Source: Cyanophora paradoxa CCMP329 (Eukaryota > Plantae > Glaucophyta). Taken from it: a stretch of 64,000 bases of DNA. The stretch covers positions 62,001 through 126,000 of the forward strand of contig QPMI01000157.1 of assembly GCA_004431415.1 (NCBI GenBank), in the 5' to 3' direction. A program made the translations under genes and the position numbers. Below the pieces are notes generated by a model. It was not told the DNA's origin, made no database searches, and saw nothing but the letters and a program-made list of their open reading frames with translations. This document shows, in pieces, positions 32,996 to 63,303 of this stretch (position 1 is the first letter of the stretch; every line of letters begins with the position of its first letter).

Positions 32996-33142
32996 ACACA
33001 TAGGGATATGCCAGATCCAAGCCCTCGGGCTTCGCCCTCTGGCTTGGATCTGGCATATCCCTATGTGTGCGCGTTTTAAGCACTAGGGTAGTAAGCATCT
33101 ATTTTAGGTCTTAGGGTATTAAATATGTCTTTTTGGCACCAG
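32996..33142 (+). repeat. Left terminal inverted repeat with terminal hairpin (32996-33068)
   Basis: Imperfect reverse complement of 63155-63303; arms 32996-33023 and 33041-33068 are perfectly complementary. Confidence 0.95.
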
Positions 33143-33147
33143 CAAGG

Positions 33148-33260
33148 GGTGTTGAGGGTGTTGAGGGTGTTGAGGGTTGTTTGTAAACTTTCTTATGAAA
33201 ATTCTCTCTCGCGGGAATTTTTACATATAACCCTCAACACCCTCAACACTCTCAACACCC
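33148..33260. repeat. Left subterminal inverted 9-mer array around an AT-rich core
   Basis: (gggtgttga)x3 ... (tcaacaccc)x3. Confidence 0.9.
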
Positions 33261-33264
33261 TCTC

Positions 33265-33675
33265 TTAAACCTCAAATCTCCTCTTCTCATGGTGTAATCT
33301 CTTTTTGATCACTGCCCCAAAACCAATAGCATATTTGCTTATCTCCTCCTCCAGCTCGAAAGCAATTAAACTTGTATTCCTTTCTGCCTGTTTTCCACAG
33401 CTGAATATATCTATTGCTAACATGCCTTGATCACTGTAGCAATGAGCAGAGCAATGGCTTTCATCTAATAATAATACTTGGGCAAATCCAGGGGGTGATT
33501 TGGTGCCATCAAATATCTCAGCATGTTTGTGGACAACCTGGATTCCATATTTCTTGATGATGTCTTCACTGACATTTATGAGCCATTTAGAGAGCCCCAC
33601 ATGGTCGCTAATTGGTTGGCTGAATTGAAAGTCAAGCATCACATGGTAGCCTTTGGCAAGCATTTTGAATACCAA
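33265..33675 (-). CDS. speD: S-adenosylmethionine decarboxylase proenzyme family (small prokaryotic type)
   Basis: GYHVMLD...PPGFAQVLLLDESHCSAHCY...LAIDIFSCG, including the E-SH pyruvoyl cleavage motif. Confidence 0.88.
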   Translation of the reverse strand: MVFKMLAKGYHVMLDFQFSQPISDHVGLSKWLINVSEDIIKKYGIQVVHKHAEIFDGTKSPPGFAQVLLLDESHCSAHCYSDQGMLAIDIFSCGKQAERNTSLIAFELEEEISKYAIGFGAVIKKRLHHEKRRFEV

Positions 33676-33708
33676 TAGCTAAGAAAAAACAATAAGATAT
33701 CTGACGAT

Positions 33709-34554
33709 TTAAGGCAAAGGATCACTTCCACCAATGGGATTGTATAAATTGGTGGTTAGATATTGACCATATCTATTTCCTCTGGCTATTTCATCATTTC
33801 TTTCAGCATACATAATCACTGTGTAAGTCCCTTGTTGTGTGGCTCTTATAATATATTGGTCATCTTGTGTGTCAAGTAGGGGCAATGAATGAAAAGCAAG
33901 ACCGAAATTATCTACTGGGACTACTTGGACTGTAATACGGGGTCTTGCTCCATCAGTTCGTCTACATAATGAGTAAATATCAGCAGGCAACGTCTCAGTA
34001 TATCTATAATGATTTCCCAAAGGCTCTAAAATATCAAGAAAAGCAGTCTGAAGGTTGATAATGATTGTGTTGATTTTGATAATGTAAGGCTCATTCATTC
34101 CCGGGACATATGTCCTGATTCTTGTATTCACATCATCTGGATTGGGTTGATCATTTACTAATAAAGGCGCTCCAATAATTCCACCAACCCTTAAACCATC
34201 TCCAATATAGGCACCTCCTGACCTACATTTAATTGCTCCCCTTCTTGCTTCGTAGGCAAAATTGGTTACCTTGTTATCATCATTGTAACTATCAGGATCC
34301 CCATGAAATGCGTTGAAATTCGCATTTGTTACAAGAAGTTTAGTAGTTTTAACGACCCCATTATTTTTGTCACATCTTAACTCTTTTAGTCTTAGCATGT
34401 GAGTGTCACCAAAAGTATTCAGAGTTGGGGCTATCTCTGTGGATTCGAGACCATCTATATTATCAATAATAGCATGCTGTAAGACGTGGTTAGCTGGAGC
34501 AGCTAATGATAGTTGCGCTGTTAAAATGCGCTCTGGTGGTGCTGGTGCCGCCAT
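33709..34554 (-). CDS. Hypothetical (possibly virion-associated) protein, paralogue of 34574-35419
   Basis: 281 aa; shares GLESTE, KELRxDKxxGVVKTTxLLVTNANF, RSGGA and RNDE with its neighbour. Confidence 0.75.
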   Translation of the reverse strand: MAAPAPPERILTAQLSLAAPANHVLQHAIIDNIDGLESTEIAPTLNTFGDTHMLRLKELRCDKNNGVVKTTKLLVTNANFNAFHGDPDSYNDDNKVTNFAYEARRGAIKCRSGGAYIGDGLRVGGIIGAPLLVNDQPNPDDVNTRIRTYVPGMNEPYIIKINTIIINLQTAFLDILEPLGNHYRYTETLPADIYSLCRRTDGARPRITVQVVPVDNFGLAFHSLPLLDTQDDQYIIRATQQGTYTVIMYAERNDEIARGNRYGQYLTTNLYNPIGGSDPLP

Positions 34555-34573
34555 TTAATATACTGAAACATAA

Positions 34574-35419: not shown

Positions 35420-35458
35420 TTCTTCTTTTATTAAGAAGGATAGAAAAATAAAGATTCA

Positions 35459-38400
35459 TCACGGAATTCCATATGCTGTCCAGTGAATTGTAAAGGTATA
35501 TGTCGTATTTGCTGTAGCAGTCGCATCAGTTAGCAAGGTAACATAAACTGTTGAAGAGGTAGAACTTGAATTTGATAATCCCAGTTTATAGTTAAGTGCT
35601 TGTGATGACACTGGGGTTCCCTCCATTATTAAACTAATGACAGGAGGTTTTGTGTTGAATGCTGGGTTCCAATTTAAGATATAAGTGGCTTCTCCACGGC
35701 TATTGGCATTGAGGGGTCCTATACTCATCTGGAAAGTCCCAGATAGAAACCTTTGCCTGATTTCATTCCATGTCAGGATTTTACTTAGACTATTTGTAGT
35801 TCCAGTGGCCACCTCATAGAAAGACCTCGCATAAACGTTGGTGTTCACACTGAGCTTGTCTACCAAAAGATTTGCTGAGAGCTGAGTATATGCTTCGGGA
35901 TACGTGTATGGAAAGTCAAGCCCAAATTTGAGCTTAAAGTAATATCTCATGAAACTCTTTTCAGTTGGAGATAAAGCCCGATTAAAAATTACAACTTCGG
36001 CTATCTCTCCTACATAGGAAGTGAATGAGAGTTCCTTTATTTTTATGGTCGGCATGTTTGACCAAAGGAAGCTTCCAGTAATTGAGGGAGATACATCTGC
36101 GCCATTCAACCCCATAGTTAGTGTTGTAGGGGTTAATTGAAAGTCGAACAACCCCCAAGAATTCAAGAAGCTTGTTGTTGAGACTTGTGTTAATGTGGAA
36201 GTGATAATACCAAGGGAATTTCCATTAACTGCTCCCAGTGTGATATATCTCCCGTATGTAGGGTCACTTGTGTCATCATTGGTAACTACAAAATGTGATT
36301 GGTTACCTGTGGCAGTGTGCTTTCTCACTGAAAATACAGTCATGCCACTGGCAAAAATGTTTGATAATGCTGTGGTGTACTGATGCCGATATCCAGAAGA
36401 ACTACTTGTGCTGACCATGTATTTATTTCCATTCAATGCTGTCCCACTGCTTATTGAGTTCTTGGATAAAGTGAACCCAGGGCTCATGTTTGGTAAGGCA
36501 AGTGGGAGCCCTTCTGCTCTGTTGACCATTGTTTCTAACAACGAGCCATTGACATCAGTTGAATTTGGGTACCAGTGGAACACACAATTGGATGTGAAAA
36601 GTGGATTAGTATATGAAAGGAGCTGGTCAATTGGTGGCGATGTAGAAATTGGATAGAACTTGATGGACTGCTCACCATTTATGATTGAAGGAGTGTAAAG
36701 GTTGCTTGAAACTACAAGGTTTGATGTTATTGTACCTCCCGTTCGGGGCAGATAGCTGCTGAGCCAGTCCCTTGTAACATTTGAAGTAACAAGTTGTGGA
36801 TTAATTTTTTCAGCTATCAATGCTTGAACGACATTTGAAGTGGTGTAAGGTTGAAGCCAGTTTTGAACAATGTTTGATGTGGGGATATTTGGCAAGGCTA
36901 CATTGCTATTCACAGTCAGCTTATTAAGTATAAGATTGGGGGTGGACACCTGTAGGAACTCATTTGAGGAGTAGGCTGGGCTGATTTGGGGAATTGGGTT
37001 GCTCAGACCATACTTTTGTGATAGATAGTAGCGGATAAAGCCCTTCTCATCAGCTGACAAAGCACGATTGTAAATAATTATTTCTGCCATTTGTCCTTGG
37101 AAGCTTTCTATCCCAATCTTTTGGATTGTGAGATTTGCCACTTCACTTAAATTGTAGTTGCCAGATAATGTGGGGGATAAATCAACACTGTTGATGCCTA
37201 CTGTGGTGATGTTTGAAGTGACATGATAGTCAAACAAAGTCCATTTGTCATAAAAGCTCGTGGCTGTGGATGCTGTGGAAGTTGCTTGATACACTCCATT
37301 TGTTTGATAACTCGTTATTCCAATAGATGTTTCTCCTGTGGTTCCAAATCTTATGTATCTGCTTGATGTTGGGTCACTATAAATTGTAAGATGGGCAGAA
37401 GCACTGCCAGAAGTCGAATAGTTTCTCCTCACAGTGAACATTGTCATCCCATTGCTGAATGGGTTTGCTATGTAGGGACTTGGTTGCGCCAAATAGGTTG
37501 AAACCCCTGTAACGCCAAATAGTTTATTCCCATTGATCAATGAGGCACTTAGCACAAAAGCCCCAGTTGAGACTTTAAGCCAAGAAGGCAAAGCATTGGG
37601 TTGCCCAGATGCCCTATTGGTGAGTTCTGGTATTGCTGTGCCTGATGGCTCATTTAAAGGATACCAGTGGAATACACAGTTTGGAGTAGACAGTGGATTT
37701 GTGTATGCTGAAAGGCGTTCCAAGGGAGGTATCAAGTTTTGTATTAGAACCAATTCTATGGATTGGCTACCACTTCTTATGTTATTTGTGTAAAGGTTGC
37801 CTGAAACTGAAAGATCAGATGTGATAGTTCCACCCGATTTGGGCAAATAGTTGCTCAACCACCCTTGTGTTATGTTTGAAGTCACCAAAGGGCTTATCCA
37901 TCCTTGAACTACATTTGATGCCATTAATGGAGCTATCCAATTTTGGACCACATTGGATGCCGTGAATGGAGCTATCCAATTTTGGACGACATTTGATGCT
38001 GTTAATGGAGCTATCCATCCTTGAACAACATTCGATGTTGGATGATGAGGAAGGTAAGCATTGCTTGTAACCGTGAGATAGTCTATCACTGTGTCGGGCG
38101 ATGTAATTTTCAACCCTCTGTAAATGGTTAGAGGTTGAGTGATTGGAAATCCATACATCATTTGGATGTAATATCTTACTTGTTGTTTTTCTGATGCGGT
38201 CAATGCTCTGTTGAAAACAAGCAGTTCACAAATACTTCCTGAAAAGCCATTGAACCCAAAATTGTTGAAGTTTGTATCAGGAAGATAATTGGTTCCTGTG
38301 ACAGTTCCAACATCAACACCATCTAACCCTACTGTGTAACTGTCAGAGGTAATAGTTTGGTCAATGTAATACCACTGGTTCAGCATTGATGGGACTGTTA

Positions 38401-41400
38401 TTAAAGGGCGAGTTTGTGATACACCACCTATCGTAAAACTTGTCATTCCAATTGTAGTGGATGAATTTATTCCATAAGCAACAACTCTGGTTGGTGAAGT
38501 TGTTCCCCACATTCGCAATTGGTTAACTGAAAAACTTGAAGCTGGATGCTTACCTATAATAAAATAGGTAAGCCCTGTCGACCAATCGACTGTTTTCACA
38601 GTGCTGTTTGGTTGGACAATGGAGATGGATGAACCTGTTATACTGATTTGGTTGTTTCTTTCAGCATTGTTTGTATATACCCCATTGGTGGTTCCACTAA
38701 CGTAAAGAGAAGGGAATATTGTTTTTGTTGGAGATCTATTATCAATGAATGTAGCTTTTGCTTCTGGACCTTCTGTTCCTGATGCTTTCCAAGCAAAAAG
38801 ACAATTCGGAATATTTGAAGCTGGATCATAACTTGCTGTGATAGGATACCATTCCCTATAAACCTGATTCATATTATGAAAATTAGATGAACCAACGGTG
38901 AGAGTTCCATTGACATTTAAATTGCTTGTGATTGTTCCACCTGTGAGTGGTAAGTAGTTGGAAGAAACATGATCTTTAATGGCGATCATATCTGCCTTTG
39001 GAGCTAACCATTCTTGAACCACATTCGATGCTGTTAAAGGCGCTATCCACTCTTGAACTACATTTGATGCTGTTAAGGGTGCTATCCACTCTTGAACTAC
39101 ATTAGATGCTGTTAAAGGTGCTATCCATTCATGAACCATATTTGATGCTGTTAATGGAGCTATCCATTCTTGAACCACATTCGATGCCGTTAAAGGTGCT
39201 GTCCATTCCTGAACCACATTAGAAGTGGTTAAAGGTTCTATATTGGTATTGATACTGTCTATGCTTTCTTGTATCTGTGTAATTTGGGCATTGATGGCAG
39301 TAATTTCTGCCTCTTGAAGGCTTGAACTTGTTTGAAAATCTTTGATAATAAAACCACCTCCTGGTGCTGGTGCTGTATATTGGAGGTTGTTAGCTATAAG
39401 ACTTCCTGTTACTCGAAGGCTGTTTGTTTGGAGAAGAAGTTTGTTAGGGTCACTGGCGAAAGGATTGTCCAATGGCTCAGGATAGCCGTATTTTTGGAGG
39501 AGATAACTTCGTATGTTGTCCTTCACGATTTCTGTTGTTGGTTTAATAATCACTATTAGCTCTGCTAAATCTTGTTTGGAGGTTGAAGAGCCAATACGAC
39601 TTTCAGTAACAAGGTTATTGGGGAACATGTTTGTAACATTTTCAACACTTCTATTGCTACCATTGATCCCAAATGTAACAGTGGAAGGAGAGACTGTTAC
39701 TTCGTAGAGTGTCCATGTCGTCATTTCAGAGTATGTAATTTCTGCTTTTGCGTTACTTGGTGAAGTGCTTTCACCTAATCCTGCTGCTCCAACCCCATTA
39801 GAAACCTGAATATAACAAGTCGCACCATTGTTCCATTTATTGATGCTCCAATTTGTGGTTCCATAACTCAAAGATAAAACGTTCTCTACAGTTGGAGGTG
39901 CTGTATCTGTGAATTTCGCGACGAAAAACACAGTTAAATGTTGCTGTGAAGTTTGGCTCATGAAAAGTTCACACTCAGCCCCCCACGTATTATAGGCTGA
40001 AAAGTTGAAGTTAATTGTAGGATATGAATTAAAATAAGGTTTGTTGTTAGGACCTCCATTATTCTTAATTTGTGTCGAGTTCCCAGCAACATTACCAAAC
40101 CCAAGAAGAAAATTCGGGGTCTCAGGGTTATTATCAAACCAAACGTCTCCTGCTCCGTTTCCAAGTCCACTCACTATCGTTCCATCTTTCATGTTGTCCC
40201 TTGCTCTGACCCAAACGAAAACATTAAGAACTGAAAGGACATTAAACGTCGAAACATCCAAATAATCCAATTTGAAAGTGTTCTCATATATTTTTAGTTT
40301 GCTGTCAGTGTTTCCTTGATTGCTCACGTTAAGATTTCCTGTGATTGTTCCACCTGTTAATGGTAAGTAGTTATCTAACAACGCTTCTGAATCTGCTATC
40401 CAACCACTCACAACATTTGAAGTGGTGTATTCATTTAACCATCCGTTTACTACATTCGAGGTTGTGAATTCTGTCAATAATGCTGCTACACCATTGGTGG
40501 TTGCTAAGTTCATCCCTGTTACTTGTAGTTCCTGAGTCTTGATGAGTAGTTTATTATCATCTCTTGGTATTGGGTTTGAAGGGTCTTCCACAAATCCGTA
40601 GAATTGATGAAGATACCATCGTAAACTATATAGTTCCTCCGCTGTTAAGACTCTTGTGAAACAATAGAATTCGCACAGGTCGAATTTTGAGTATTGACTT
40701 CCCAAATATACATACTTAACATCATTTCGGGGTAGGTGAGAACCATTTGATATCGAAAAGGTCTGTCTCTCTTTCGCATTAACGCCCACTTTTACGGATG
40801 TGCTTGTGATTGTGATGTCATAGATTGTCCAAGAATCTACTTCGTCAATTGTGAGTGGAACCCTGAAAGTAGATTGGTCTAATTTGCTGATGTTCAAAAC
40901 GAAACCATCACCCCATTGACCTTTCGAAATACTCCAAATTTGCCCATTACTACCAAGTGTAGAAGACCCATCAAACTGTAAAATAGGTTCAAGCGGTTCA
41001 GCGCTTCTTAACTTAATCACAAATGCGACGGTTATCCCTCCACTAAAATCAATGGTTTCAAAGCCTGCTGAATTTGTAGAAAAGAAGGAATAACGGAAAG
41101 TAGAGAAGCTATTTGTGTCTGCTACATCATAGAAGGGTTTGTTATTAGGACCTCCTGAACTCTTGAATACTACACTTCCAGACTGTATCAGTTTTTGAAT
41201 AACATTAGCATTTGCTTTATTTACAAGCTCATAGACCAATACATTATTTTCCCAAGCATCATCCAAACTCGCATTAAATCTTAGAAGGCAATGAGACAAA
41301 CCCCCAACATCGAAATTTAAGAAGTTTAAAGGGGCTCTTGAAATCTCATTATTCCCTATAACAATCTTATCCTTTACCTCCAATTCTCTATTGACTGTAA

Positions 41401-43537
41401 GATCACCTGTAATGGTGCCACCTGTCAATGGTAAATATTTAGCAAGTTCAGCATCAAGCTCAGTCTCTGTAACATAGGGTATTAATGCTGCTGCCAGTGT
41501 TGTGGCATATTCAGTTTCTGTTACATAATCATTGAGTATAGTAGTTAATTCAGTTCCATCTATGTAATTCTTATTTTCTAAATAATCCTCTGTGACCACT
41601 CGTGATATATTTTCGTTGTGAATGTTTTTTGCTGATGCCCTTTGATTGATCTCTAAGACACCCTCCCCCACTCCACCATTATAATTTGTTTTAATCCAAG
41701 CTACCTCACACTGTTTATAATCATCGCGATCTCCAATTAAATCATCAGGTAAGAGACGTTCTCGGCTAAATATTAACTTGGGTCTTGATCCATCAAGAGC
41801 GCTAACATCAGTTACGTTAATTTGAAGGGTCGCATCTTTGTCTACAAAATTAATTGGATTGGCTGGAAGAGATGGTATAGGTGGTAATGTTGCTGTCATT
41901 GGGATGTCGTCAGGGTAGTAACTTGTTAAATAGATACCTGGTTTGGTGTCTTTTATTTCAACACCTCCACCAGCTGCCACTAAATTAACTCTTGTAGGTG
42001 GTCTAATATAGAGTTCGCCTTCCATTGTGGTTCCAGCATTAATTCCGTGGCGATTGACATAATATGTATCTAATAGTAATCGTTCTTCTGTGTCTATATT
42101 TTTATACAGGCTCACACCATGTAGCCCATCATTCACAGCATTACCTGCTGATGCGAAAGTAGGTTGCTGGTCGATTTCATCCCAATCGTGTCTGTGGTCT
42201 TCTGGTGGGAACAATTCTGGTACATCAATTTCGTCCCAAGTGTGTCTATGGTCTGCTGGTGGAAATTCTTCTGGTATTCCATCGATTTCTCCCCAATCAT
42301 GCCTATGATCCACAGGCGGAAATCTATCAGGTTTATTCTCGATTTCGTCCCAATCATGGCCATGGGGATCAGGTGGATATGTTTGTGGTTTATTTCGAAT
42401 GTCCTCCCAATCCACTATGAAATCGAATAGATCAGGTGCGAAACCATCAGGTAAAAGCTGCTCATCAAAAGGCTCGTAGCGATCATAAGTTACAAGATTT
42501 GGGTCGAAACCATCTGGTAAGACATTATCCTCTTCAAATCGCCTATCTTCAAGAGGTATAACATTTACATCTGGTGATAAAAGCTCCTCAGCTGGTTGTT
42601 TGTAATCTGTAAATACTGGTTTGTTTCTGACTTTTTCCCAGCTAACTATGTGCTGCCCAAAGGCTACATTTTCCTCTGCTGTGTATTCCCTCCCTGGTTG
42701 CTTCTTTGGTGTAAGGTCGGGTGGATCCCACGGAAGCGGAAAGGGGACAGGAACAGGACCGTAATGCTCAAAGATTTCCCTTATAGTTTTCTCACTGACA
42801 AGCTTTTCACCATTGGCATACACATTGCTTCCATGGATATTTCGCCACTGCCTCGTCCTGATTCCAAGGTCTTTGGTGTTTGTGACCAATGGTAAAAGGT
42901 GCCTATCCATTTCGACAAGATCAGGGTGTAAATGGATTGCCACTGGTTGAGTGGGGCTGCTGTTGATGGTAATTGATGGCTTTTTCTGGTGGACATCATT
43001 TGGAGTAAAAAACCCAAACGGCTCATTCCTCGCAAAGTCATATGTAATATCCTTGGGGTATACATCATTAGTTGAACAGACTTGATTCGTGTTCTGGAAA
43101 TGGCCCACTTGTAATACTTGGGGAACCTCTGTTTTTGTGGTGCTGCCCTCATTATAAATTCTTAAACCCGTGTTCTGTTTGCCCTGCTCATCTTGTACAT
43201 TGAAAATCAAACGGCCACTATCACACCTTGATGGTATGTCTGGATGGGTTCCACTTGGTTTAAGTTTTCTGGGTCTCTTTCTGGTTGCCTTGATCTCTGC
43301 TACTTGGTTGGCTTTCACATTGCCCAAACTAAAAGCTATACTGACATCCTCCTTGTCTGGATCGGTCTGATTTAAGGAAAGGGCATGCTCCCTTGATTGA
43401 GTCTTTGAAGAACCGTCAGAGCTGTGGTCGATTGATATTGAACCTTTAACTTTTATATTATCAAAGTTCACATGCTTTGTGCTGCTGGAATTATCATCTT
43501 GAATTGTTTCCAGATTAGGGGGGTAATTAAAGCTCAT
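35459..43537 (-). CDS. Giant fibre/adhesin-like protein (2692 aa) with five LamG/ConA-like modules
   Basis: HxHxWxEI repeats, five YLPxxGGTIT motifs, TASNVVQEWIAPL repeats, five domains ending in an ExxxFNRAL...RxY...YG-like motif. Confidence 0.8.
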   Translation of the reverse strand: MSFNYPPNLETIQDDNSSSTKHVNFDNIKVKGSISIDHSSDGSSKTQSREHALSLNQTDPDKEDVSIAFSLGNVKANQVAEIKATRKRPRKLKPSGTHPDIPSRCDSGRLIFNVQDEQGKQNTGLRIYNEGSTTKTEVPQVLQVGHFQNTNQVCSTNDVYPKDITYDFARNEPFGFFTPNDVHQKKPSITINSSPTQPVAIHLHPDLVEMDRHLLPLVTNTKDLGIRTRQWRNIHGSNVYANGEKLVSEKTIREIFEHYGPVPVPFPLPWDPPDLTPKKQPGREYTAEENVAFGQHIVSWEKVRNKPVFTDYKQPAEELLSPDVNVIPLEDRRFEEDNVLPDGFDPNLVTYDRYEPFDEQLLPDGFAPDLFDFIVDWEDIRNKPQTYPPDPHGHDWDEIENKPDRFPPVDHRHDWGEIDGIPEEFPPADHRHTWDEIDVPELFPPEDHRHDWDEIDQQPTFASAGNAVNDGLHGVSLYKNIDTEERLLLDTYYVNRHGINAGTTMEGELYIRPPTRVNLVAAGGGVEIKDTKPGIYLTSYYPDDIPMTATLPPIPSLPANPINFVDKDATLQINVTDVSALDGSRPKLIFSRERLLPDDLIGDRDDYKQCEVAWIKTNYNGGVGEGVLEINQRASAKNIHNENISRVVTEDYLENKNYIDGTELTTILNDYVTETEYATTLAAALIPYVTETELDAELAKYLPLTGGTITGDLTVNRELEVKDKIVIGNNEISRAPLNFLNFDVGGLSHCLLRFNASLDDAWENNVLVYELVNKANANVIQKLIQSGSVVFKSSGGPNNKPFYDVADTNSFSTFRYSFFSTNSAGFETIDFSGGITVAFVIKLRSAEPLEPILQFDGSSTLGSNGQIWSISKGQWGDGFVLNISKLDQSTFRVPLTIDEVDSWTIYDITITSTSVKVGVNAKERQTFSISNGSHLPRNDVKYVYLGSQYSKFDLCEFYCFTRVLTAEELYSLRWYLHQFYGFVEDPSNPIPRDDNKLLIKTQELQVTGMNLATTNGVAALLTEFTTSNVVNGWLNEYTTSNVVSGWIADSEALLDNYLPLTGGTITGNLNVSNQGNTDSKLKIYENTFKLDYLDVSTFNVLSVLNVFVWVRARDNMKDGTIVSGLGNGAGDVWFDNNPETPNFLLGFGNVAGNSTQIKNNGGPNNKPYFNSYPTINFNFSAYNTWGAECELFMSQTSQQHLTVFFVAKFTDTAPPTVENVLSLSYGTTNWSINKWNNGATCYIQVSNGVGAAGLGESTSPSNAKAEITYSEMTTWTLYEVTVSPSTVTFGINGSNRSVENVTNMFPNNLVTESRIGSSTSKQDLAELIVIIKPTTEIVKDNIRSYLLQKYGYPEPLDNPFASDPNKLLLQTNSLRVTGSLIANNLQYTAPAPGGGFIIKDFQTSSSLQEAEITAINAQITQIQESIDSINTNIEPLTTSNVVQEWTAPLTASNVVQEWIAPLTASNMVHEWIAPLTASNVVQEWIAPLTASNVVQEWIAPLTASNVVQEWLAPKADMIAIKDHVSSNYLPLTGGTITSNLNVNGTLTVGSSNFHNMNQVYREWYPITASYDPASNIPNCLFAWKASGTEGPEAKATFIDNRSPTKTIFPSLYVSGTTNGVYTNNAERNNQISITGSSISIVQPNSTVKTVDWSTGLTYFIIGKHPASSFSVNQLRMWGTTSPTRVVAYGINSSTTIGMTSFTIGGVSQTRPLITVPSMLNQWYYIDQTITSDSYTVGLDGVDVGTVTGTNYLPDTNFNNFGFNGFSGSICELLVFNRALTASEKQQVRYYIQMMYGFPITQPLTIYRGLKITSPDTVIDYLTVTSNAYLPHHPTSNVVQGWIAPLTASNVVQNWIAPFTASNVVQNWIAPLMASNVVQGWISPLVTSNITQGWLSNYLPKSGGTITSDLSVSGNLYTNNIRSGSQSIELVLIQNLIPPLERLSAYTNPLSTPNCVFHWYPLNEPSGTAIPELTNRASGQPNALPSWLKVSTGAFVLSASLINGNKLFGVTGVSTYLAQPSPYIANPFSNGMTMFTVRRNYSTSGSASAHLTIYSDPTSSRYIRFGTTGETSIGITSYQTNGVYQATSTASTATSFYDKWTLFDYHVTSNITTVGINSVDLSPTLSGNYNLSEVANLTIQKIGIESFQGQMAEIIIYNRALSADEKGFIRYYLSQKYGLSNPIPQISPAYSSNEFLQVSTPNLILNKLTVNSNVALPNIPTSNIVQNWLQPYTTSNVVQALIAEKINPQLVTSNVTRDWLSSYLPRTGGTITSNLVVSSNLYTPSIINGEQSIKFYPISTSPPIDQLLSYTNPLFTSNCVFHWYPNSTDVNGSLLETMVNRAEGLPLALPNMSPGFTLSKNSISSGTALNGNKYMVSTSSSSGYRHQYTTALSNIFASGMTVFSVRKHTATGNQSHFVVTNDDTSDPTYGRYITLGAVNGNSLGIITSTLTQVSTTSFLNSWGLFDFQLTPTTLTMGLNGADVSPSITGSFLWSNMPTIKIKELSFTSYVGEIAEVVIFNRALSPTEKSFMRYYFKLKFGLDFPYTYPEAYTQLSANLLVDKLSVNTNVYARSFYEVATGTTNSLSKILTWNEIRQRFLSGTFQMSIGPLNANSRGEATYILNWNPAFNTKPPVISLIMEGTPVSSQALNYKLGLSNSSSTSSTVYVTLLTDATATANTTYTFTIHWTAYGIP

Positions 43538-43580
43538 GGCTTTTACTATATGGATTTATAAAATTCCTTATAAGTATTAG

Positions 43581-50685: not shown

Positions 50686-50690
50686 ACACA

Positions 50691-50927: not shown

Positions 50928-51375
50928 AATAATCTACTTTTAGGCAGCATAAAAATGCGAAAGGGGCGGCTCTGCGTAGAGCTTGATGAGAGCTTCACAG
51001 GAAAAAAAAGAGCGCTCAAAACGGCCAATCTGGTGCCGAGATATTCGCGTTTGAAGTTCCTTAAGTGGCTCTAATTGAAAGTTTTAGAAACATTCTTATA
51101 GAGCTCTATAAGGAAAAAGCCGCCTACTGCTGTACGGTAGGCGCGAGGGCTCTACCGGTAGGCGAGTAGGCAGGGCCCTACTGTTCTACCGCCGGCGGAC
51201 TGTGCCTACCGGTCTGCGGTAGACACACGGGCTCGCCTACCACTGCGGTAGGCTGGCTCATATATATGTATATGATATATATGAAAAAAACCAAGTTTTG
51301 GTAAAAACTACAGCGCCGTGATCGCCATGACGCGGCGAGTCCGGAAAGCTATGTTATATATATATGTCATGTGAC

Positions 51376-53832: not shown

Positions 53833-54031
53833 CGAACGTACATATGTATATGATATATATGAAAAAAAAACAAGTTTTGGTAAAAACTATAGCGCCGTGA
53901 TCGCCATGACGCGGCGAGTCCGGAAAGCTATGTTATATATATATGTCATGTGACATCATAATATATCATATACATATATCATTATGGTATATACATTTGG
54001 TATATGCGAAACTGAAAATATTCGTAGCTCG

Positions 54032-54436: not shown

Positions 54437-54529
54437 GAATCAATTTTTGGTGGGCACTTGGGGGCTTGGGCTCTTCACCATGCTATATGAAGATGTCCTT
54501 AAGTGCTGGTGGCCTACAAGCAAGTGGGG

Positions 54530-54897
54530 TGGATTTTGGGGGGGTTAGGGGACTCAAGGAGAAGTTAGGGGGGGTTTCTGCCAACTGACGTCTTGTTGTT
54601 TAGGTTACCATTCTCAGTCTGGAAGGTGGGGTTTAGGGGGGGATTAGGGGGTTGTGGAGTGGGTAGGGGGGTATTCTCTCACAACTCTATATATTTCTGG
54701 CTTGTTGCTTAAAAATGAAAAGATTTGGAGGCTATAGGAGTTATATATCCCCCCCTAGGTCCCCTAACCCCCCTATGTGTATACATTATTACCATTTCTG
54801 GTCATAAAACAACCAGAAAGTAAAAAATGAAGGTCCCCCAGAAGGTCCCCCAGACGTCTTGAACCCCCCCCAAAAACCTATCATGAGCCCCCCCTAA
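54530..54897. repeat. G-rich then C-rich inverted repeat cluster downstream of the primase-helicase
   Basis: ttagggg(g) motifs followed by (c)ccccta motifs across an AT-rich spacer. Confidence 0.75.
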
Positions 54898-57165
54898 TCC
54901 TCCTCCTCTTCCAAAAATTCCACCAACAGCCCACAGCTCTTGAAGTAAGCCATCATCTCATCCCACTTGAAGACATAACACTCCCTTCCACAATACTTGG
55001 TAGGCCTCACATATTCCAGTCCAGCCATCTCAATGTAGAACTTCCTTGAGCTGAATTCATTCTTGAATTTATTAATTGTAATGAACTGCTGGAACCACTC
55101 CCACACCTGTTGCCTGTTCTCAGTCCTTGGTGTATCCTTGGTAATCTTTTGGGTGTCTACCAAATCCTTGGTGAACAAGGCAGTGACAGGAACACTTGCT
55201 TGTTGGGCAAGGTAGTAGCTGTTGGTCATTGGCCTGTCAGCATACCAGTTCACATCTGTGACATCCACCTTGTTTTTCAAGTAAAGGAATACCATGTGCT
55301 GGTTTCTTGGCTCCTTCAGCCAATTACCAGTGACTTGAAATATTTCATGTCACCCTTTTTCTTGTCACTCACCTCCACAATCACAAACCTTCTATCTCCA
55401 GCCTCCACTTTGATTGGTAGGGTGTTGTTGGTAGTAAATATGATCCTGGCAAAATTCCTCACCTCATGAGAATTGACATACTTAGCCTCAATTACAATTT
55501 TCTCAGCAGTGATCATGTCCTTGAGGGCATCACTGTTTGTGAAGGTGTCTTTGCCACTTGCCTCATTCACAGTGATAAGTAGTTTGTGCTTTCGCTGGTG
55601 GGCAAAGTTTCCAAATAAGTCCTTCAGTGGGTTGGCTGTGCTGAAAGCCAAGTCCCACCCAGTATTTCATTTTGAAACCAATCCAATATGATGTTCTTCC
55701 CCACTCCTTGCTTTCCCTTGAAGATGATTGAAATCCCATTCAACTCCCCAGGTCTCTGAATAATGTGGGCAAAGTACTTCAGTATGTAATTGAATGTAGA
55801 AGCATCTTCACCACTGAGAATCATCATGTGGTCAAGGAATGGGCTAACATCTTCCTCAGTTACATCAGGAGGAATATCCATTTCACTCACATCCATAAGC
55901 TCACCTTTCATACCAGCATAGGCATTAAACACCTTGGCAGTGGTGGAAGCAGATTTTACAGGAGGTGGGAGGAAGTCCAAGTAATCATACCTTGTGGCAG
56001 TCTCATCTTTCGCCCACTTTTTGATGAAGTTATGAGGCTCCATCTTCATAGACATTAGGTCAAACTCTGTGTACTGAATGTGAGGGTATACATCCTCAGC
56101 CAAGCTTTTGAAGCTGGTTGTGTCATACTTCTTGGTATGATCATTCCAAGACAAGACAAACCCAGGCTTCATAATGTGAGCAAGTCTGGCATCCATGTAG
56201 GGCTTGATCTCCATGTAATCACAGTTGGTAGGAATTGGAGCAGTCTTGTAATCAATGTTGGAAAGGGAAGCTTGACATTCAGGTACATCAAACCCACTGG
56301 CCATAGGTTTTTCCACAAAAGTCACCCTGTAGCCAGTTTTTCCCTCCACATAATCACTAACCTCTTCCAAAGCACTCAATACTTTGGGGTCTTTCCTGAT
56401 CATACATCCATCAAAGACCAAGACATCCACATGGAGCTTAAGAGCACTGAAGTACTCACAAGCAGCCATTAACACCTGATTCTCAAGGTCACATAGTACC
56501 ATATTCATGGTGGAACCAAGTACATTGCTTTCTTTCTTGCGCTTAGCAATAGCATAGAAGCGCTGCTTCTCAATCCCACCAATGAATTGATGGACTTTGG
56601 CCATTTCCTCTTTGAGATCACTGAAGTACTTGTGATTGATAAGTAGGCTAGAGAGGTCAGCCCCTTGCCCACCATTGATGACTGCCAGAATGCTGCGCTT
56701 GACATCAGCCTTGGATTTCTGGGTGACCTCACAGAGATCATCAAGAATTTCATCCCTGCTCTGAACATATTTGTTCAGCTGAGGAGTGGCAATTGAATGT
56801 TTCTCACAATACTGAACAAGCAGGACAGGGTGGCAGTTCACAATGTCAATGTCATAGTAGTAGTCCTTGGAAATGGTGTGGCGAATTTCCCTACAGATGC
56901 TTTGAAGGCTGGGGGTTTTTCCATCCACAAAGTACCTACCAGTGTTGTGCTTCACCTGCTTATATTTACAGGTGTGGTAGCCCTCATGATCGACGATAGA
57001 AAGTAATTTCTGGATGATGGCTCTCATTTGGGTCTTGTCAGTTTCAGGGCGAAACTGGAGATTATCAAAGTTCTCCACCACCCATTTGAGGTTACCTCTG
57101 TGGATGCGCTCAGTGAGAATGAAGGTGTTGCCATTGGGGTTGATTGAGCTGAATGAGGGAGCCAT
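54894..57165 (-). CDS. TVpol (PolA-related primase/polymerase) fused to D5-like SF3 helicase; two frameshifts (~55655, ~55320)
   Basis: YYDIDIVNCHPVLL, VLVFDGCMI (TVpol); GKQGVGKN, ITVNEA, IIFTTN, DRRF (SF3); three collinear ORF pieces. Confidence 0.85.
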
Positions 57166-57268
57166 TCTACAGTAGGGTGAGAAAATAATTTGATGATTCT
57201 ATTGACACCCTTGTCCTTAAGTAGTTTATAGAATCATTAAATAAAACAATCAATTTTTCGCAACCCCC

Positions 57269-57460: not shown

Positions 57461-57515
57461 TTTAATTCTTGTTCCTCTACACTATAGGTAAGATTTTATT
57501 CTTTAAATGCTGATT

Positions 57516-58088
57516 CTATTCGGTATTTTGTGCCTCGGGCTTAATCTCATTGAGAGCGGCAAAGTCTCCATAGTGTTCAATTGCCGCCTGATTGTAGGCA
57601 TGAGCGGCTAAGGCTTCATTTTTGTAATACCCCAAAGAGAGCCTTTTGTCATTAATTGTAATCTGAGCACACCATTTACCCTCTCGTTTCTTGAAAGAAA
57701 CACCTTTATATTGACTGCTTGTATTGCTGCTTTTACTCCTATTCCTATTATTCTCAAAAGGATAGCATACCCTCAGATTACACTTCCTGTTGTCCAATTT
57801 ATCTCTGCTCACATGGTCGACAACCAACCCTTCTTTCAGTTCATTTGTCATTATCAATCGATGAGCATACAATACCAACCATTTCCCTTCATCTCGCCTT
57901 ACACTTGTCTTAGCATAACCATCCCCATCCAAACACCAGTTATATCTCATCATTGTAGGAGCATCTTCGATATCACATATCATATACTGGCCCCTTCCTT
58001 TGGCCCCTCCAAGTGGAACGTAGAAATATTTCATGGAGTCCACGTCGTCAAACTTGGTTTCAACCAAATCCTGATCAAAGGTTTCCAT
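57516..58088 (-). CDS. HNH endonuclease with AP2 DNA-binding domain
   Basis: HRLIM...VDHVSRDKLDNRKCNLR...N; SQYKGVS...WCAQI...LGYY...AAHAYN.AA. Start taken at METF. Confidence 0.92.
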   Translation of the reverse strand: METFDQDLVETKFDDVDSMKYFYVPLGGAKGRGQYMICDIEDAPTMMRYNWCLDGDGYAKTSVRRDEGKWLVLYAHRLIMTNELKEGLVVDHVSRDKLDNRKCNLRVCYPFENNRNRSKSSNTSSQYKGVSFKKREGKWCAQITINDKRLSLGYYKNEALAAHAYNQAAIEHYGDFAALNEIKPEAQNTE

Positions 58089-58184
58089 TTTTCGTCTACA
58101 ATAGACACACAAATTAATCTTCCAAATTCTACGCGGCATTTAAAGATTATTTTCGTACCTATATATAAGTACAACCCCCCAACC

Positions 58185-61100
58185 ATGCCCCGCCCCAGCC
58201 ACTACCAAATTAAGGAGCTCCAGGACAAGATTCTCGGGAATCTGGCGTTCTTACTGGCCAATCACTCCATCAGTGAAAGTGAATATGAATCTTATATTAA
58301 ACAGACCAACAAGAAGCTCAAGGGGCTTCAAGCTCTCAATCGAGAGCTATTAGGGAAAATCGAGACCCTTGATGAGACTGATCGCCTTGGCCAAATCCAA
58401 GTCGAACAAACTACCACAACTCAAGTCAGAGGAGATGAATACACTACCTTAATAAATGAACATCGTGCTCTTAATAATAAATACATTGATTTTACCATCA
58501 GGGCTCACCACCAGATCCTGACCACTCAAGAGTTTATAGACACCTACTCTGAGGAACTCCACACAAGGCTCCAAGATGCCATCAATTCACAGATGTCGAT
58601 TAAAACTCGCTTTACGTTTGTCTGTCGCTTTTCAAAAGCAAACAATTCGAGAGACTTTATTACCAAGCACATTTACAGCACCTATGCTATCATGACAAGA
58701 TCTCGAACCCTCACTAAAGAAACTGCGAAATTGGCTAAGGAATGCCAGTCGCAAATTAATGTCACAGACAGCTATAAACTCCAAAGCATTGAGGCTTTGA
58801 GAGTGATTGTTCTGTCCTTTAAACCCATCTCAGGAGGTGCTTTTATCCCACTCCCAGAGTGGCTCAAAAATAAACGAGCCATTGTCAATGTTAATAACAA
58901 GGACAATAGATGCTTTGAGTATGCTATCCTTTCTTATATTCACAAGGACGAAGTAAATAGCCACAAGCGCAATGAGACTTCCCAATACAGGAGGTGGTTC
59001 AAAAAAGAACTAAATTTCGAGGGCATTGAGTTTCCTGTAAAGGCAGATGCTGATACTATTGATCTCTTTGAAAATCTCAATCCAGCAATCTCTGTTAATA
59101 TTTACGACCCCTCTAACTCTACAGAAGAAATTAATCTACTCCACAACAGCTCCTCAAGGAACAGGAAACACCAAGTGGATCTGCTGCTAATTACAGACGA
59201 AAATGGTAACAGTCATTATACCACAATATTCAGCATGTCCAGAGTCTTAGCTAAAAATGATAAGCAGCGACTCCATTTCTGTAAAACCTGTTCCAACCAC
59301 TTCAAGACTGAGGAGAAGCTTCAATCCCACATTCAAAGCAAACGTTGTGTGGATTGGAAGACAAGTGCTGGAGAGACCCCAAAACAACCCACATTCATTG
59401 AATTTGGTCTTAAACATCTCTCAAAGACTGTATTCCTCCCCGTGATTGCCTATTGCTATTTCGATTATGAAACAGATATTTCTGGTATGTTCAAGATCAA
59501 ATCAATCTCACTGACAGCTCTTCATAATAATAGAGTAGTACTCACTAAAACCCACTCCAACATCTTTGAGCTCCTGAGTACCCTCGACAGCACAGCCCCA
59601 GAGCTATTCAAAGCCCTATTTACCAACATCCCAATGTCACTGACCAAAGAGCAGAAACGTACCCATTACCTTGCTAAAACCTGCTACATCTGTGAGGGTA
59701 CGTTTTCCCAAGACAACTATAAAGTGAGGGATCACGACCACCAAACTGGCGATTTTGTAGGCACAGCATGTCGCAAATGTAATCTCCACAGACGCACCAG
59801 CAATCTCACCAAGATTCCCATAGTGACCAATGATCTGTCCCTATCTGGAACGCAGATATTCAAGGCAGTCGCCTTAAATCCCGAAAAAAGGGTGGAAGTC
59901 CTCGCAAAATCGTTTGACAGCTACATGTCGATCACCTGGGGCTGTTTCAAATTCATTGACATCAAAAACTTTATTGATTATGGCGTCCAGAACGTGGAAG
60001 GATTAATGGAAAAGTTCCAGCTTTTCCGCCAGAAATCACACAAAACTTTTGGGATGGATGCTGCCCACTATGTCTCAAGTCCGGGGCTTTCGTGGGACAG
60101 CATGCTATCTATTACCAAGCCTAAAATCGAGCTTCTTTCCAACCTTGATATGTACAACATGGTTGAAGGCATGATCAGGGGAGGCCTTTCGATTATGAAT
60201 CATAAATATGCCAAAAAGGAAAGGGACAGCCACATTATATATTTGGATGCCAATAACCTATATGGATATGCCTATCCCAAAAGCTACCCTCTCGAATTTC
60301 CAATGGCACCCAGAACCCTCAAATTACGACCTGTCATCAGCAGAGGGGCCATCTTAGAAGTTGACATCCATTATCCCCAGCACCTCCATCAACTCCACAA
60401 AGAGCTACCTCTTGTCATCAAGAGAGCAGAGGATGGACTTCAAGCAGCCTGCGAAGACATTTGTAATTATGTGGTGTCGAAACCTTTGCTCCAATTCATG
60501 GTAGCGCAAGGCTTAAAGGTCACCAAAATCCACAGGGTGCTAACATTTACTCAGGCTGCCTTTATGAAGCCTTACGTCGAATCCAATGCCCAAAACCGCA
60601 AAGCAGCCCCTTCCAAACCCGAAAAGGACTTCTTTAAGATCATGAACAATAGCCTTTTTGGCAAAACCATTGAGAAAGTGAGAGGAAGGTCTAATGTCAA
60701 GATTGCCACCAACGAAAAGCAATTTATGAAATACGCCAGATCGCCCCTACTCAAAGCAGAAACAAGACTAAGCGATTCAGCAGTAGCCTTCGAAATGCTA
60801 CAAAAAGATGTCAAGTTAGATAAGCCCATAGCAATTGGGGCAGTTGTTTTAGATCTTGCCAAGCTGCGCCTATTTGATTATTATTATAACACCATCAAGC
60901 GGAAATGGCCAGACTGTAAACTGCTTTTTACTGATACAGATTCGCTTTGCCTTCAAATAAATTCGAAAACTATAGCAAAAGACCTACAAGACATTGACAC
61001 ACACCCCACAGAGCTTGGAAAGTTCAAAAATGAGTTTGAGGGCAGAACCATTATTGAATATGCTGGGGTAAGGCCGAAATGCTACAGCATTAAAACAGAT

Positions 61101-61214
61101 GATGAGGAAATAAAAAAGCTGGCAGGTGTTTGTAAGGAGACCATTCAAGCAGATCTGTCTTTCCAAGATTATAAAGACCATGTGCTCCACCAAAACCCAA
61201 GCAAATCGAGATGA
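58185..61214 (+). CDS. polB: Protein-primed family B DNA polymerase (Polinton type)
   Basis: YLDANNLYG, KIMNNSLFGK, TDTDS, LGKFK, RPKCY; Zn-finger insert CYIC...DHDH.TG...ACRKCNL; N-terminal IPLPEWL...DNRCF...SHY. Confidence 0.95.
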   Translation: MPRPSHYQIKELQDKILGNLAFLLANHSISESEYESYIKQTNKKLKGLQALNRELLGKIETLDETDRLGQIQVEQTTTTQVRGDEYTTLINEHRALNNKYIDFTIRAHHQILTTQEFIDTYSEELHTRLQDAINSQMSIKTRFTFVCRFSKANNSRDFITKHIYSTYAIMTRSRTLTKETAKLAKECQSQINVTDSYKLQSIEALRVIVLSFKPISGGAFIPLPEWLKNKRAIVNVNNKDNRCFEYAILSYIHKDEVNSHKRNETSQYRRWFKKELNFEGIEFPVKADADTIDLFENLNPAISVNIYDPSNSTEEINLLHNSSSRNRKHQVDLLLITDENGNSHYTTIFSMSRVLAKNDKQRLHFCKTCSNHFKTEEKLQSHIQSKRCVDWKTSAGETPKQPTFIEFGLKHLSKTVFLPVIAYCYFDYETDISGMFKIKSISLTALHNNRVVLTKTHSNIFELLSTLDSTAPELFKALFTNIPMSLTKEQKRTHYLAKTCYICEGTFSQDNYKVRDHDHQTGDFVGTACRKCNLHRRTSNLTKIPIVTNDLSLSGTQIFKAVALNPEKRVEVLAKSFDSYMSITWGCFKFIDIKNFIDYGVQNVEGLMEKFQLFRQKSHKTFGMDAAHYVSSPGLSWDSMLSITKPKIELLSNLDMYNMVEGMIRGGLSIMNHKYAKKERDSHIIYLDANNLYGYAYPKSYPLEFPMAPRTLKLRPVISRGAILEVDIHYPQHLHQLHKELPLVIKRAEDGLQAACEDICNYVVSKPLLQFMVAQGLKVTKIHRVLTFTQAAFMKPYVESNAQNRKAAPSKPEKDFFKIMNNSLFGKTIEKVRGRSNVKIATNEKQFMKYARSPLLKAETRLSDSAVAFEMLQKDVKLDKPIAIGAVVLDLAKLRLFDYYYNTIKRKWPDCKLLFTDTDSLCLQINSKTIAKDLQDIDTHPTELGKFKNEFEGRTIIEYAGVRPKCYSIKTDDEEIKKLAGVCKETIQADLSFQDYKDHVLHQNPSKSR

Positions 61215-61287
61215 CTGTTCAAAAGAAGCTTGATAATGAGACGTTTAATGTGAAGATGTCCAAGATTGCTTTCTAATCCCAATATAG

Positions 61288-62655
61288 ATGTCATCAAAGA
61301 TCACACGCAGACAAACAGAGTACGATGTGAGTATATTGCCAATCCCAATCCCTCAAGAGGAGAGAGGGGGTCGCATTCAGAAAAAGAGTGACCTCAAAGC
61401 TTTAGTTCCTGCGGATATCCCAACTGCCATTGCTGTGCCTCACTTGGATCCCTTAGCAAGGACATTCTATGACACCAAGGTAGGATTTAAAGGCCTTGCT
61501 TCATTGGCCAAAGAGCTTCCAGATGTGCCAAGAAAGACAATCCGTAGATTCTATGATGCCCAAGAAATCAACCAGATAAATAAACCCCTCCCATCTGCCA
61601 AGAAGACTGCCTATATCCCAATAAGACAGCCACTCGACTGCTATGCCATAGACCTAATCTTTTATCCTTCGTACAGCAAACAGAATCAAGGCTACAACAC
61701 GTTCCTCACAGCTGTAGAAAATACCACCAGACTGGGCTTTATAATTCCCATGAGGGGAAAGACAGCAGAAAGCACATTGAACGCATTTAAGGAGCTTGAG
61801 CAACAAGTCCCTCGTCCAATTGTGAAGATACAAAGTGATGCTGGGAGCGAATTCCTGAACAAGGTATTTAAAGACCATTTAGAAACCCAGATGATTGAGC
61901 ACCAAGTTTCGCAGGTTGGAGATCACAATAGCCAAGGCCGAATAGAAGCCTTTAATCGCACAATAAAGAAGCTAATTAACTCGTATTGTATAGCGAATAA
62001 TACTGTAAAGTTTTTCGACAAGCTCCAAGATTTTGCCTACAACTACAATAATACCATCCACTCAGCAACGGGGATGAAACCAGCAGAGACCACAGAGGTA
62101 CATGTTCCTCTAATACTCGCAAAAGAAAACGAGAAATTCATGAAGTCAATTGAATATCTAAAAGACTATCCAGCAGGGAGCCACGTGAGAACTAAAATAG
62201 AGAAGAGCCCATTTGCCAAACAAGGGAATAATTGGAGCCGCGAAATATTCACAATAGAAGGAGTGGAGGGGTTCAAATTCAAATTAAGGGACATTTCTGG
62301 CAAACTAATAGATCGACTTTATGCCCACTATGAATTACAGAAAGTGGAAGCCGTGGAGTTCTTGGAAGCCCCATCAATTAATGTCATTGAAGAGGCAAAG
62401 AAAGAGGCCAGAACAGAGCGACTGTTGGCCAGAGAGGGAATTGAGAGGGCTCCAAACGTGCCAGATAAACCATTATTGGAGGACAGAGCAGGGAAGAAGA
62501 AGAAACAAGGGAGAGAGTTGGAAAGATTGAGGGTGGCAGGGACAGAGAGATTAGCAGGGGGAGCAGAGGCAGTAAGGTGGTATAGAGATTTCTCGAATTC
62601 AAAGGAGACCTATGAAGCTCCAGCAATTTCCACGAGATCAAGGAGGAGGATTTGA
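61288..62655 (+). CDS. Retroviral-like (RVE) DDE integrase
   Basis: IDLI, IQSDAGSEF, IEAFNRTIK, YNNTIHSATGMKP; consistent with the 6-bp TSD. Confidence 0.95.
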   Translation: MSSKITRRQTEYDVSILPIPIPQEERGGRIQKKSDLKALVPADIPTAIAVPHLDPLARTFYDTKVGFKGLASLAKELPDVPRKTIRRFYDAQEINQINKPLPSAKKTAYIPIRQPLDCYAIDLIFYPSYSKQNQGYNTFLTAVENTTRLGFIIPMRGKTAESTLNAFKELEQQVPRPIVKIQSDAGSEFLNKVFKDHLETQMIEHQVSQVGDHNSQGRIEAFNRTIKKLINSYCIANNTVKFFDKLQDFAYNYNNTIHSATGMKPAETTEVHVPLILAKENEKFMKSIEYLKDYPAGSHVRTKIEKSPFAKQGNNWSREIFTIEGVEGFKFKLRDISGKLIDRLYAHYELQKVEAVEFLEAPSINVIEEAKKEARTERLLAREGIERAPNVPDKPLLEDRAGKKKKQGRELERLRVAGTERLAGGAEAVRWYRDFSNSKETYEAPAISTRSRRRI

Positions 62656-62664
62656 GCAGAGAGG

Positions 62665-62940
62665 AGGATGGGGGGATGGGGGGATGGGAAACCCATCCCC
62701 TTGTACTCGAATAGAAAATTTCAAAAAACAAAAACAAAATTTGTTTTCTGAGAAAAGTCCCATCCCCCTGACTGAGTCCCATCCCCCTCCCATCCCCCTG
62801 ACCAGATATCGTCACAAATCAACCAAATTTCATACATTTTCCCATCCCCCTGCCATCCCCTCTGCCATCCCTCCCATCCCCCTGCCATCCCCTCAAACCA
62901 CCCTTTTACCAGACACTCCCATTCCCCTTCCATCCCCCTG
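62665..62940. repeat. ggatgggg / ccatcccc repeat cluster downstream of the integrase
   Basis: 3 forward copies and about 10 inverted copies around an A/T-rich spacer. Confidence 0.8.
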
Positions 62941-63012
62941 ACTATTCAAGATATCTGTTTAAGAGAAAATGTAAAGAAATGAAAAGATGAATGGCAGTCT
63001 TAATTATGGATA

Positions 63013-63107
63013 GAGGCAGGAGAGGCAGGAGGGTTATATGTAAAATCCCACACAAGAGGGGATTCCTTAGGAAAGTTTACAAATAACCCTCCTGCCTCTC
63101 CTGCCTA
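63013..63107. repeat. Right subterminal inverted 9-mer array around a homologous AT-rich core
   Basis: aggcaggag x2 ... ctcctgcct x2. Confidence 0.88.
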
Positions 63108-63154
63108 ATTGGTGCCGAATCCAAGCTTCTAATACCCCAGAGGCGGCCAACATA

Positions 63155-63303
63155 CTGGTGCCAAAAAGACATGATTAATACCCTAAGACCTGAAATAAAT
63201 GCTTACTACCCTAGTACCTGAAACGCGCACACATAGGGATACCCCTGATCCAAGCCTGTAGGCCGAAGGCCGGAGGGCTTGGATCAGGGGTATCCCTATG
63301 TGT
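63155..63303 (-). repeat. Right terminal inverted repeat with terminal hairpin (63229-63303)
   Basis: Arms 63229-63256 and 63276-63303 are perfectly complementary. Confidence 0.95.

Follow-up and report, generated by a model that had tools for sequence, protein, structure and literature searches.

Compensated changes in the terminal hairpins of an integrated Polinton-like element from Cyanophora paradoxa, and a tentative fold-back model for copying its ends

We have analyzed a stretch of 64,000 nucleotides from the glaucophyte Cyanophora paradoxa CCMP329 (contig QPMI01000157.1, positions 62,001 to 126,000; hereafter the window) and find that it contains an integrated Polinton-like element, each end of which is a perfect 28-bp hairpin. 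The two hairpins differ from one another, and each difference is compensated within its own stem. The virus-like element spans 32996-63303 (30 kb) and has a GC content of 44% as against 64-66% in the flank. Inside each terminal hairpin lies a second, repeat-based hairpin, and the element encodes both a PolA (TVpol)-superfamily 3 helicase (PolA-S3H) and a pPolB polymerase. We tentatively propose that the PolA-helicase replicates the element from the inner hairpins, that 3' fold-back on the outer hairpin has replaced the terminal protein (TP), and that the rve integrase opens the resulting fold.

Paired changes in the terminal hairpins

The element is delimited by the following features.

32990-32995, strand not applicable: left target-site duplication (TSD) TACGGC; empty site present in short-read contigs
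32996-33068, minus strand: left outer hairpin, with a perfect 28-bp stem, a 17-nt loop and a GCGAAGC mini-hairpin on the 3'-ended strand; spanned by a contig in two of three short-read runs
32996-33142, plus strand: left terminal inverted repeat (TIR), imperfect, pairing with 63155-63303
63155-63303, minus strand: right TIR
63229-63303, plus strand: right outer hairpin, with a perfect 28-bp stem, a 19-nt loop and a CCGAAGG mini-hairpin on the 3'-ended strand
63304-63309, strand not applicable: right TSD TACGGC, from the sequence and short-read contigs

The arms of the outer hairpins (32996-33023 with 33041-33068, and 63229-63256 with 63276-63303) are exact reverse complements, and no other perfect inverted repeat in the window with a loop of up to 100 nt is as long as these two. 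The left stem reaches 30 bp solely through the chance GC at the end of the TSD. Left and right stems differ at positions 14, 15 and 18, and the partner arm mirrors all three changes. Pairing within a hairpin is thus better conserved than identity between the ends (0/28 mismatches at each end versus 3/28 stem differences). A preliminary description of this DNA had made the same claims of perfect terminal palindromes and compensated stem differences, and they are borne out here. So is its placing of GAA mini-loops on the 3'-ended strand, although that placement follows from the inverted repeat, and GAA at both ends does not amount to two independent observations.

Were the arms independent, identical sites and bases would be expected at all three positions with a probability of ~1e-5, a figure that must be read in the light of the clustering of the three changes, which may represent fewer events. 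The TIRs are ~150 bp long, imperfect and ~90% identical between left and right; outside the stem 7/74 positions differ, a rate similar to the 3/28 of the stem itself. One more compensated pair is found in the loops, which carry GGGC-GAA-GCCC (left) and GGCC-GAA-GGCC (right) on the 3'-ended strand. The ends fold with z-scores of -16.1 and -12.7 relative to 200 shuffles. There are four CGAAG-centered 4-bp stems in the whole 30-kb element, and two of these cap the ends. GCGAAGC and CCGAAGG are both named as extra-stable mini-hairpins that occur at replication or transcription starts (PMC13037366). Both outer hairpin tips begin ACAC.

The left hairpin is carried by short-read contigs, and we therefore reject the idea that it is an assembly artefact: in two of three runs a contig begins exactly at 32996 and crosses the hairpin to 33109, and in the third the contig ends at 33064. 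For the right hairpin, an inner-arm variant is the sole structure among the short-read matches listed, and the loop is seen in the assembly alone. Both the left and the right stem types are present in short-read contigs. Contig depth in X1 is 905 for the right type and 240 for the left, which, depth not being equal to copy number, suggests that the right-type stem is the commoner. The combination of perfect pairing within ends and differences between them points to a homogenizing step that operates within an end, rather than a panhandle-like one that operates between ends.

Perfect palindromes can self-correct without selection, which counts in favor of reading the ends as non-functional remnants of template switching at broken termini that are kept perfect by gene conversion. 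This explanation, offered as an alternative in a preprint on elements of Halocafeteria seosinensis (bioRxiv 10.64898/2026.07.28.741278), is in our judgment very improbable for the present element. Equal stem length and a C-GAA-G cap are found at both ends despite unequal loops and a compensated change in the mini-stem, both stem types occur in short-read contigs, and a second structured element lies inside each end.

Another possibility is that the ends are remade as in parvoviruses or poxviruses, by hairpin transfer or the resolution of dimers, with the loop being inverted at every round. The geometry of the ends and the superfamily 3 helicase are like those of parvovirus ends. A similar model appears in the Halocafeteria preprint (bioRxiv 10.64898/2026.07.28.741278). 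However, a single loop orientation, the same at both ends, is seen in the assembled contigs, and the contig through the left hairpin is unbranched in two of three runs; this is a weak argument, as contigs drop rare forms. In addition, none of 66 protein queries gave a Pfam match to an HUH nickase. Hairpin transfer of the parvovirus type, which the preliminary description had entertained, is weakly disfavored by these results, and we consider this whole class of mechanism distinctly improbable.

That the hairpins lie at the true ends of the element is evident from the insertion site. The unoccupied target is seen in every short-read run (4/4 in one comparison and 3/3 in another, one run being shared), and in the contigs of one run the identical tip is joined to a different flank. 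These two observations establish the exact boundaries and imply further insertions of the same family. The earlier assignment as an integrated Polinton-like element is borne out.

Inner repeat hairpins as candidate origins

Each end contains a further hairpin, which lay beyond the account given in the preliminary description.

33147-33260, strand not applicable: left inner hairpin, in which a 9-bp unit is arrayed in opposite orientations on the two sides of a conserved core of ~60 bp; likely PolA-S3H origin
63012-63106, strand not applicable: right inner hairpin, with a different 9-bp unit, 24-bp perfect arms and the same core as on the left

The 9-bp unit is not the same at the two ends, yet the arms remain complementary, and short-read contigs contain two additional arm variants that are again mutually inverted. 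Within the element a detector for this pattern responds at the two ends only. Applied to other loci, the detector was positive in 18/80 PolA-S3H loci, compared with 0/30 pPolB loci, 0/88 integrase loci and 0/80 shuffled loci, and after clustering the difference between PolA-S3H (14/59) and pPolB (0/28) loci persisted (Fisher p 0.0037). The site is within 1 kb of the PolA-S3H gene in 14 of the 18 positive loci, where 3.3 would be expected. When 14 new loci were retrieved via the ATPase and scanned with the detector unchanged, two sites were found, both ~50 bp or less from an AEP-type primase-helicase gene. The proximity of these sites to primase/polymerase-S3H genes argues for a cis origin serving such replicases, and by its distribution and placement the inner-hairpin pattern is likely to be the origin of the PolA-S3H enzyme. 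Inverted repeats have previously been suggested as primase-helicase origins (Barth et al., PMC11296320). A literature search, with subscription papers largely outside its reach, found no description of an inner repeat hairpin as a defined origin.

Several individual loci merit description. Inverted-repeat structures flank the PolA-S3H gene on both sides in L194 (9161-9287 and 12418-12526) and L120 (1818-1899 and 5512-5601), which suggests a mobile replicase cassette. In the 720-kb viral contig L160, an inverted repeat array (12158-12284) lies 39 bp from a PolA-helicase gene and has a core that by eye is like the inner core of the window. The inverted repeat pattern directly follows AEP-type primase-helicase genes in L199 (6794-6905) and L203 (9336-9468). 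An identical ATPase is found in L199 and the PolA-bearing contig L154, a hint of replicase exchange.

Two replicases in one element

The replication genes are clustered toward the right end.

54894-57165, minus strand: PolA (TVpol)-superfamily 3 helicase, broken into three frame segments in the assembly; 94 homologues; DUF5906
57516-58139, minus strand: HNH-AP2 endonuclease, between the two replicases
58185-61214, plus strand: pPolB, with a TP-like domain whose linking loop (58761-58775) is altered, a decayed exonuclease, and the vOTU Cys/His and polymerase motifs intact

The PolA-S3H protein retains the invariant residues D105, D107 and D252, and its predicted fold matches Klenow/Bst Pol I (E 8.6e-7). 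TVpol has itself been predicted to be a primase(-polymerase) (PMC3671162), and this raises the alternative that the outer hairpin serves to load a primase on displaced single strands, much as mini-hairpins do in the phage G4 or ssiA origins, and that PolA-S3H makes a primer there, the hairpin itself not being extended. In keeping with such a role, the ssiA primase signal contains CCGAAGG, and mini-hairpins can form in origins of the G4 type (PMC13037366). Nevertheless, a loading signal has no need of a blunt, perfect 28-bp stem that ends exactly at the last base, and by itself it would leave the problem of end copying unsolved. We therefore think this alternative improbable.

The pPolB protein was compared residue by residue in a 28-sequence alignment. 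The predicted linking Ser, within a GSGW loop, is present in 24 of the 25 homologues that have a residue at this position, whereas the pPolB of the element has Asp195 in a loop that lacks both Gly and Pro. In the structural model of pPolB this altered loop is flanked by the final helix and strand of the N-terminal TP fold, which is where the linking residue has been placed (bioRxiv 2024.03.18.585575). The exonuclease is also degraded: the ExoII Tyr-Asp found in 27/27 homologues is absent, the ExoIII Asp (again 27/27) is Asn, and ~100 aa are deleted. Short-read contigs agree with the window across the linking loop and the exonuclease sites. The likeness of the TP domain to its homologues (0.13) falls below the minimum among the homologues themselves (0.15). 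The best fold matches of pPolB are bidnavirus-like and adintovirus PolBs. The pPolB is likely to be a remnant, or else a polymerase that still elongates but has lost priming. The co-occurrence of pPolB with a primase-helicase is uncommon (PMC3671162).

Single-base indels within the pPolB gene distinguish the short-read contigs from the assembly. The broken reading frames of the capsid and PolA genes therefore probably reflect errors of assembly as well.

Relatives of the element

No close relative with its ends was recovered by an integrase search of viral contigs, by the tip pattern or by the inner-core pattern. Scans with an integrase alignment gave 8 + 80 distant loci, the metagenome part covering 6 of 64 parts, and none of these has a comparable terminal hairpin. 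Four of the 30 pPolB loci have ends that look like those of true Polintons (L006, L012, L018 and L025), and these are without a terminal hairpin. A perfect hairpin of at least 18 bp within 30 nt of the locus end was present in 3/212 loci (L122, L153 and L194). L122 is the lone true contig end among these, and its hairpin, an AT-run palindrome lacking a loop, may have been created by the assembly; the hairpins of L153 and L194 were rejected as termini because they lie at internal cut points.

A fold-back model for copying the ends

The tentative model that we put forward runs as follows. PolA-S3H would load at an inner hairpin and melt it. The freed 3' strand could then snap back, assisted by the GAA mini-hairpin, to give a fully paired 3'-OH, and extension of this folded 3'-OH into the genome would leave a closed end. 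The rve integrase would nick this closed end at the stem base, joining the 3'-OH so made to host DNA. Finally, gap repair copying the unfolded hairpin would produce the two-armed integrated form, with a 6-bp TSD and a constant loop orientation. Because the arms would be physically paired in every cycle, mismatches would be repaired or purged within an end while the two ends drift apart. The model would thus account for the perfect pairing within ends, the drift between them, the single loop orientation and the degeneration of the priming loop. Fold-back priming, which the preliminary description had raised, is made plausible by the altered predicted priming residue of pPolB and by the association of the inner hairpin with primase/polymerase-helicase genes.

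A broader version of this idea, which we regard as doubtful, is that the element represents a Polinton lineage in the course of abandoning protein priming. A PolA-helicase origin would have been installed at both ends, pPolB priming and proofreading would have been lost, and the integrase would double as a nickase for hairpin ends. The inverted 8-10-bp repeat hairpin would then be a general origin of PolA-/AEP-helicase Polinton-like viruses (PLVs) and virophages.

A number of observations weigh against the fold-back model. Some of them favor an arrangement in which pPolB still protein-primes at the ACAC tip, the outer hairpin is a cruciform or single-strand signal for the integrase in excision or integration, and PolA-S3H contributes helicase activity. 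The ACAC tip suits slide-back priming. A TP fold continues to be predicted, the Cys/His dyad of the vOTU is intact and well conserved, all polymerase motifs are retained, and Thr194, Ser196 and Tyr197 adjoin the altered Asp195. A single substitution is weak evidence because pPolB is divergent throughout (~34% identity). Mavirus, which is protein-primed, has likewise lost its exonuclease and gained a superfamily 3 helicase (bioRxiv 2024.03.18.585575), and pPolB usually goes together with a DDE integrase (bioRxiv 10.64898/2026.10.13.758929). Set against continued protein priming are the replacement of the linking Ser, the low likeness of the TP domain, TIRs that are merely ~90% identical, and the presence at both ends of an origin-like hairpin typical of primase-helicase loci. 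On balance we judge it unlikely.

Other points on the same side concern the products expected of fold-back and the origin assignment. TVpol may need no DNA primer, to judge from its predicted primase activity, and no strand-change joints are found among the listed matches in short-read contigs. The inner-hairpin detector was written post hoc, after similar structures had been noticed in PolA relatives. The pPolB control loci are probably mostly animal-type Polintons, the controls were not habitat-matched, and the integrase control loci are mostly short or weak matches. No site was detected in 62/80 PolA loci, nor in the single PolA locus (L205) of the ATPase-fetched set. In relatives the site usually adjoins the PolA-S3H gene, whereas in the window element the two are more than 5.8 kb apart. 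That the two ends have unlike repeat units argues against strict sequence-specific iterons. Lastly, rve occurs in 0/80 PolA-S3H loci and no relative combining rve with PolA-S3H was recovered.

Insertion site and gene content

The remaining genes and inserted sequences are as follows.

29264-32995, plus strand: ORF2 of a host non-LTR (long terminal repeat) retrotransposon (APE and reverse transcriptase), split by the element; frame resumes after 63310
33265-33663, minus strand: S-adenosylmethionine decarboxylase-like gene just inside the left end (PF02675, E 1.6e-11)
35459-43537, minus strand: 2692-aa LamG-domain protein, probably a fiber (PF13385, E 1.3e-10)
43581-45137, plus strand: patatin-like phospholipase with an F5/8 domain
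45127-46062, minus strand: probable minor capsid (penton) protein (by Atlas likeness, 0.97 and with low recognition, to a cluster in which 26% of members bear Sputnik V18/19)
46071-47102, plus strand: possible second penton-like protein (likeness by eye)
47157-48526, plus strand: probable major capsid protein, split between two frames in the assembly (Atlas 0.96 to PF04451-bearing clusters; low recognition)
48580-49362, plus strand: A32-like packaging ATPase (PF04665, E 4.6e-13)
51377-53530, strand not applicable: GC-rich nested insertion outside the end system, with 131-bp direct repeats (51377-51507 and 53253-53383)
61288-62655, plus strand: rve integrase with the DDE triad present (D122, D184 and E220)

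The S-adenosylmethionine decarboxylase-like gene seems an unusual cargo for a PLV. No Pfam match to a Ulp1/adenain maturation protease was obtained with the 66 protein queries (23 + 43), a search that short or very divergent genes could escape.

The host retrotransposon interrupted by the element occupies 25761-32995 and 63310-64000 and encodes an ORF1 protein of 1168 aa and an APE-reverse transcriptase ORF2. Its reverse transcriptase frame stays open on either side of the element, and intact copies are present in short-read contigs. Further upstream, positions 1-25500 of the window hold ~4 tandem copies of a 6.9-kb host repeat that has stretches of 86% GC and a 21-bp subrepeat and gave no Rfam hit; the Rfam scan of the window as a whole was likewise without a match.

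The nested insertion (2.2 kb) is flanked by a near-identical 118-bp duplication (51258-51376 and 53838-53956), contains a 19-bp inverted repeat at 53221-53280 and has two ORFs that lack a Pfam match. It is possibly a non-autonomous Ngaro/DIRS-like element.

Short-read contigs indicate that some copies of the element have other sequence upstream of the pPolB start (58137-58175) and that one copy diverges over 160 bases at 60202-60363; these differing copies imply subtypes within the element family. A loose contig end at 58774 was considered as a further terminus and rejected, as it reads as a diverged pPolB copy.

Significance and comparison with known systems

The element bears on how PLVs and virophages that lack a functional terminal protein initiate replication and complete their linear ends. 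It offers short substrates for study, namely an end hairpin of 73-75 nt, of which compensated variants occur naturally, and a candidate origin of ~100 bp, and its own two polymerases and integrase can be paired with them. The candidate origin pattern recurs beside primase/polymerase-helicase genes in unrelated viral contigs and could serve to find origins across the group. If the integrase does open the fold, a DDE integrase would connect replication with integration in a DNA virus.

With classical Polintons/Mavericks and adintoviruses the element shares its type of pPolB, the rve integrase, a 6-bp TSD, TIRs, the A32 ATPase and a short dinucleotide repeat at the tip. Unlike classical Polintons, it has an extra PolA-S3H, a decayed exonuclease, a changed linking loop, ends that form hairpins and TIRs that are imperfect, and no Ulp1/adenain match. 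The ends of parvoviruses, including adeno-associated virus, resemble those of the element in their self-priming geometry, the use of a superfamily 3 helicase and the repeats near the hairpin. In contrast to these viruses, the element is 30 kb long, integrates through rve, has no match to an HUH Rep and displays no flip/flop in contigs.

PLVs and virophages with PolA-S3H (TVpol) or AEP-S3H replicases share with the element the PolA-S3H gene and an HNH gene beside the replicase. However, these replicases usually partner tyrosine recombinases, whereas the window element has rve and origin-like hairpins at both genome ends. Genomes with dual replicases, in which repeats are marked around the replicases, have been described (bioRxiv 10.64898/2026.10.13.758929), and they are like the element in combining two replicases in one genome.

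When the main texts of PMC10120064, PMC8547959, PMC12220804, bioRxiv 2022.07.28.501842 and bioRxiv 2025.10.09.676808 were searched for terms, neither 'hairpin' nor end palindromes came up. Within the reach of our literature search, the Halocafeteria preprint (bioRxiv 10.64898/2026.07.28.741278) alone describes this type of end. It reports palindromes in TIRs next to TSDs in virophage subtypes 1, 2, 5 and 6 as well as in PLV subtype 4, finds that end palindromes go preferentially with non-pPolB replicases and particular RVE integrases, and proposes hairpin priming. The suggestion in the preliminary description that such termini were new is therefore not upheld. The Halocafeteria elements and the element studied here have in common a TIR palindrome adjoining the TSD, an RVE integrase and a non-pPolB replicase, and the Halocafeteria PLVs also have no capsid protease. 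The main text of the preprint does not mention covariation of the ends, GAA caps, an inner hairpin or a co-resident altered pPolB, though its figures and supplements may show covariation or inner repeats. Relative to that main text, the paired changes, the mini-hairpin caps, the inner hairpin and the altered pPolB are new, and they add testable support for hairpin priming, of which the preprint calls for exactly such a test.

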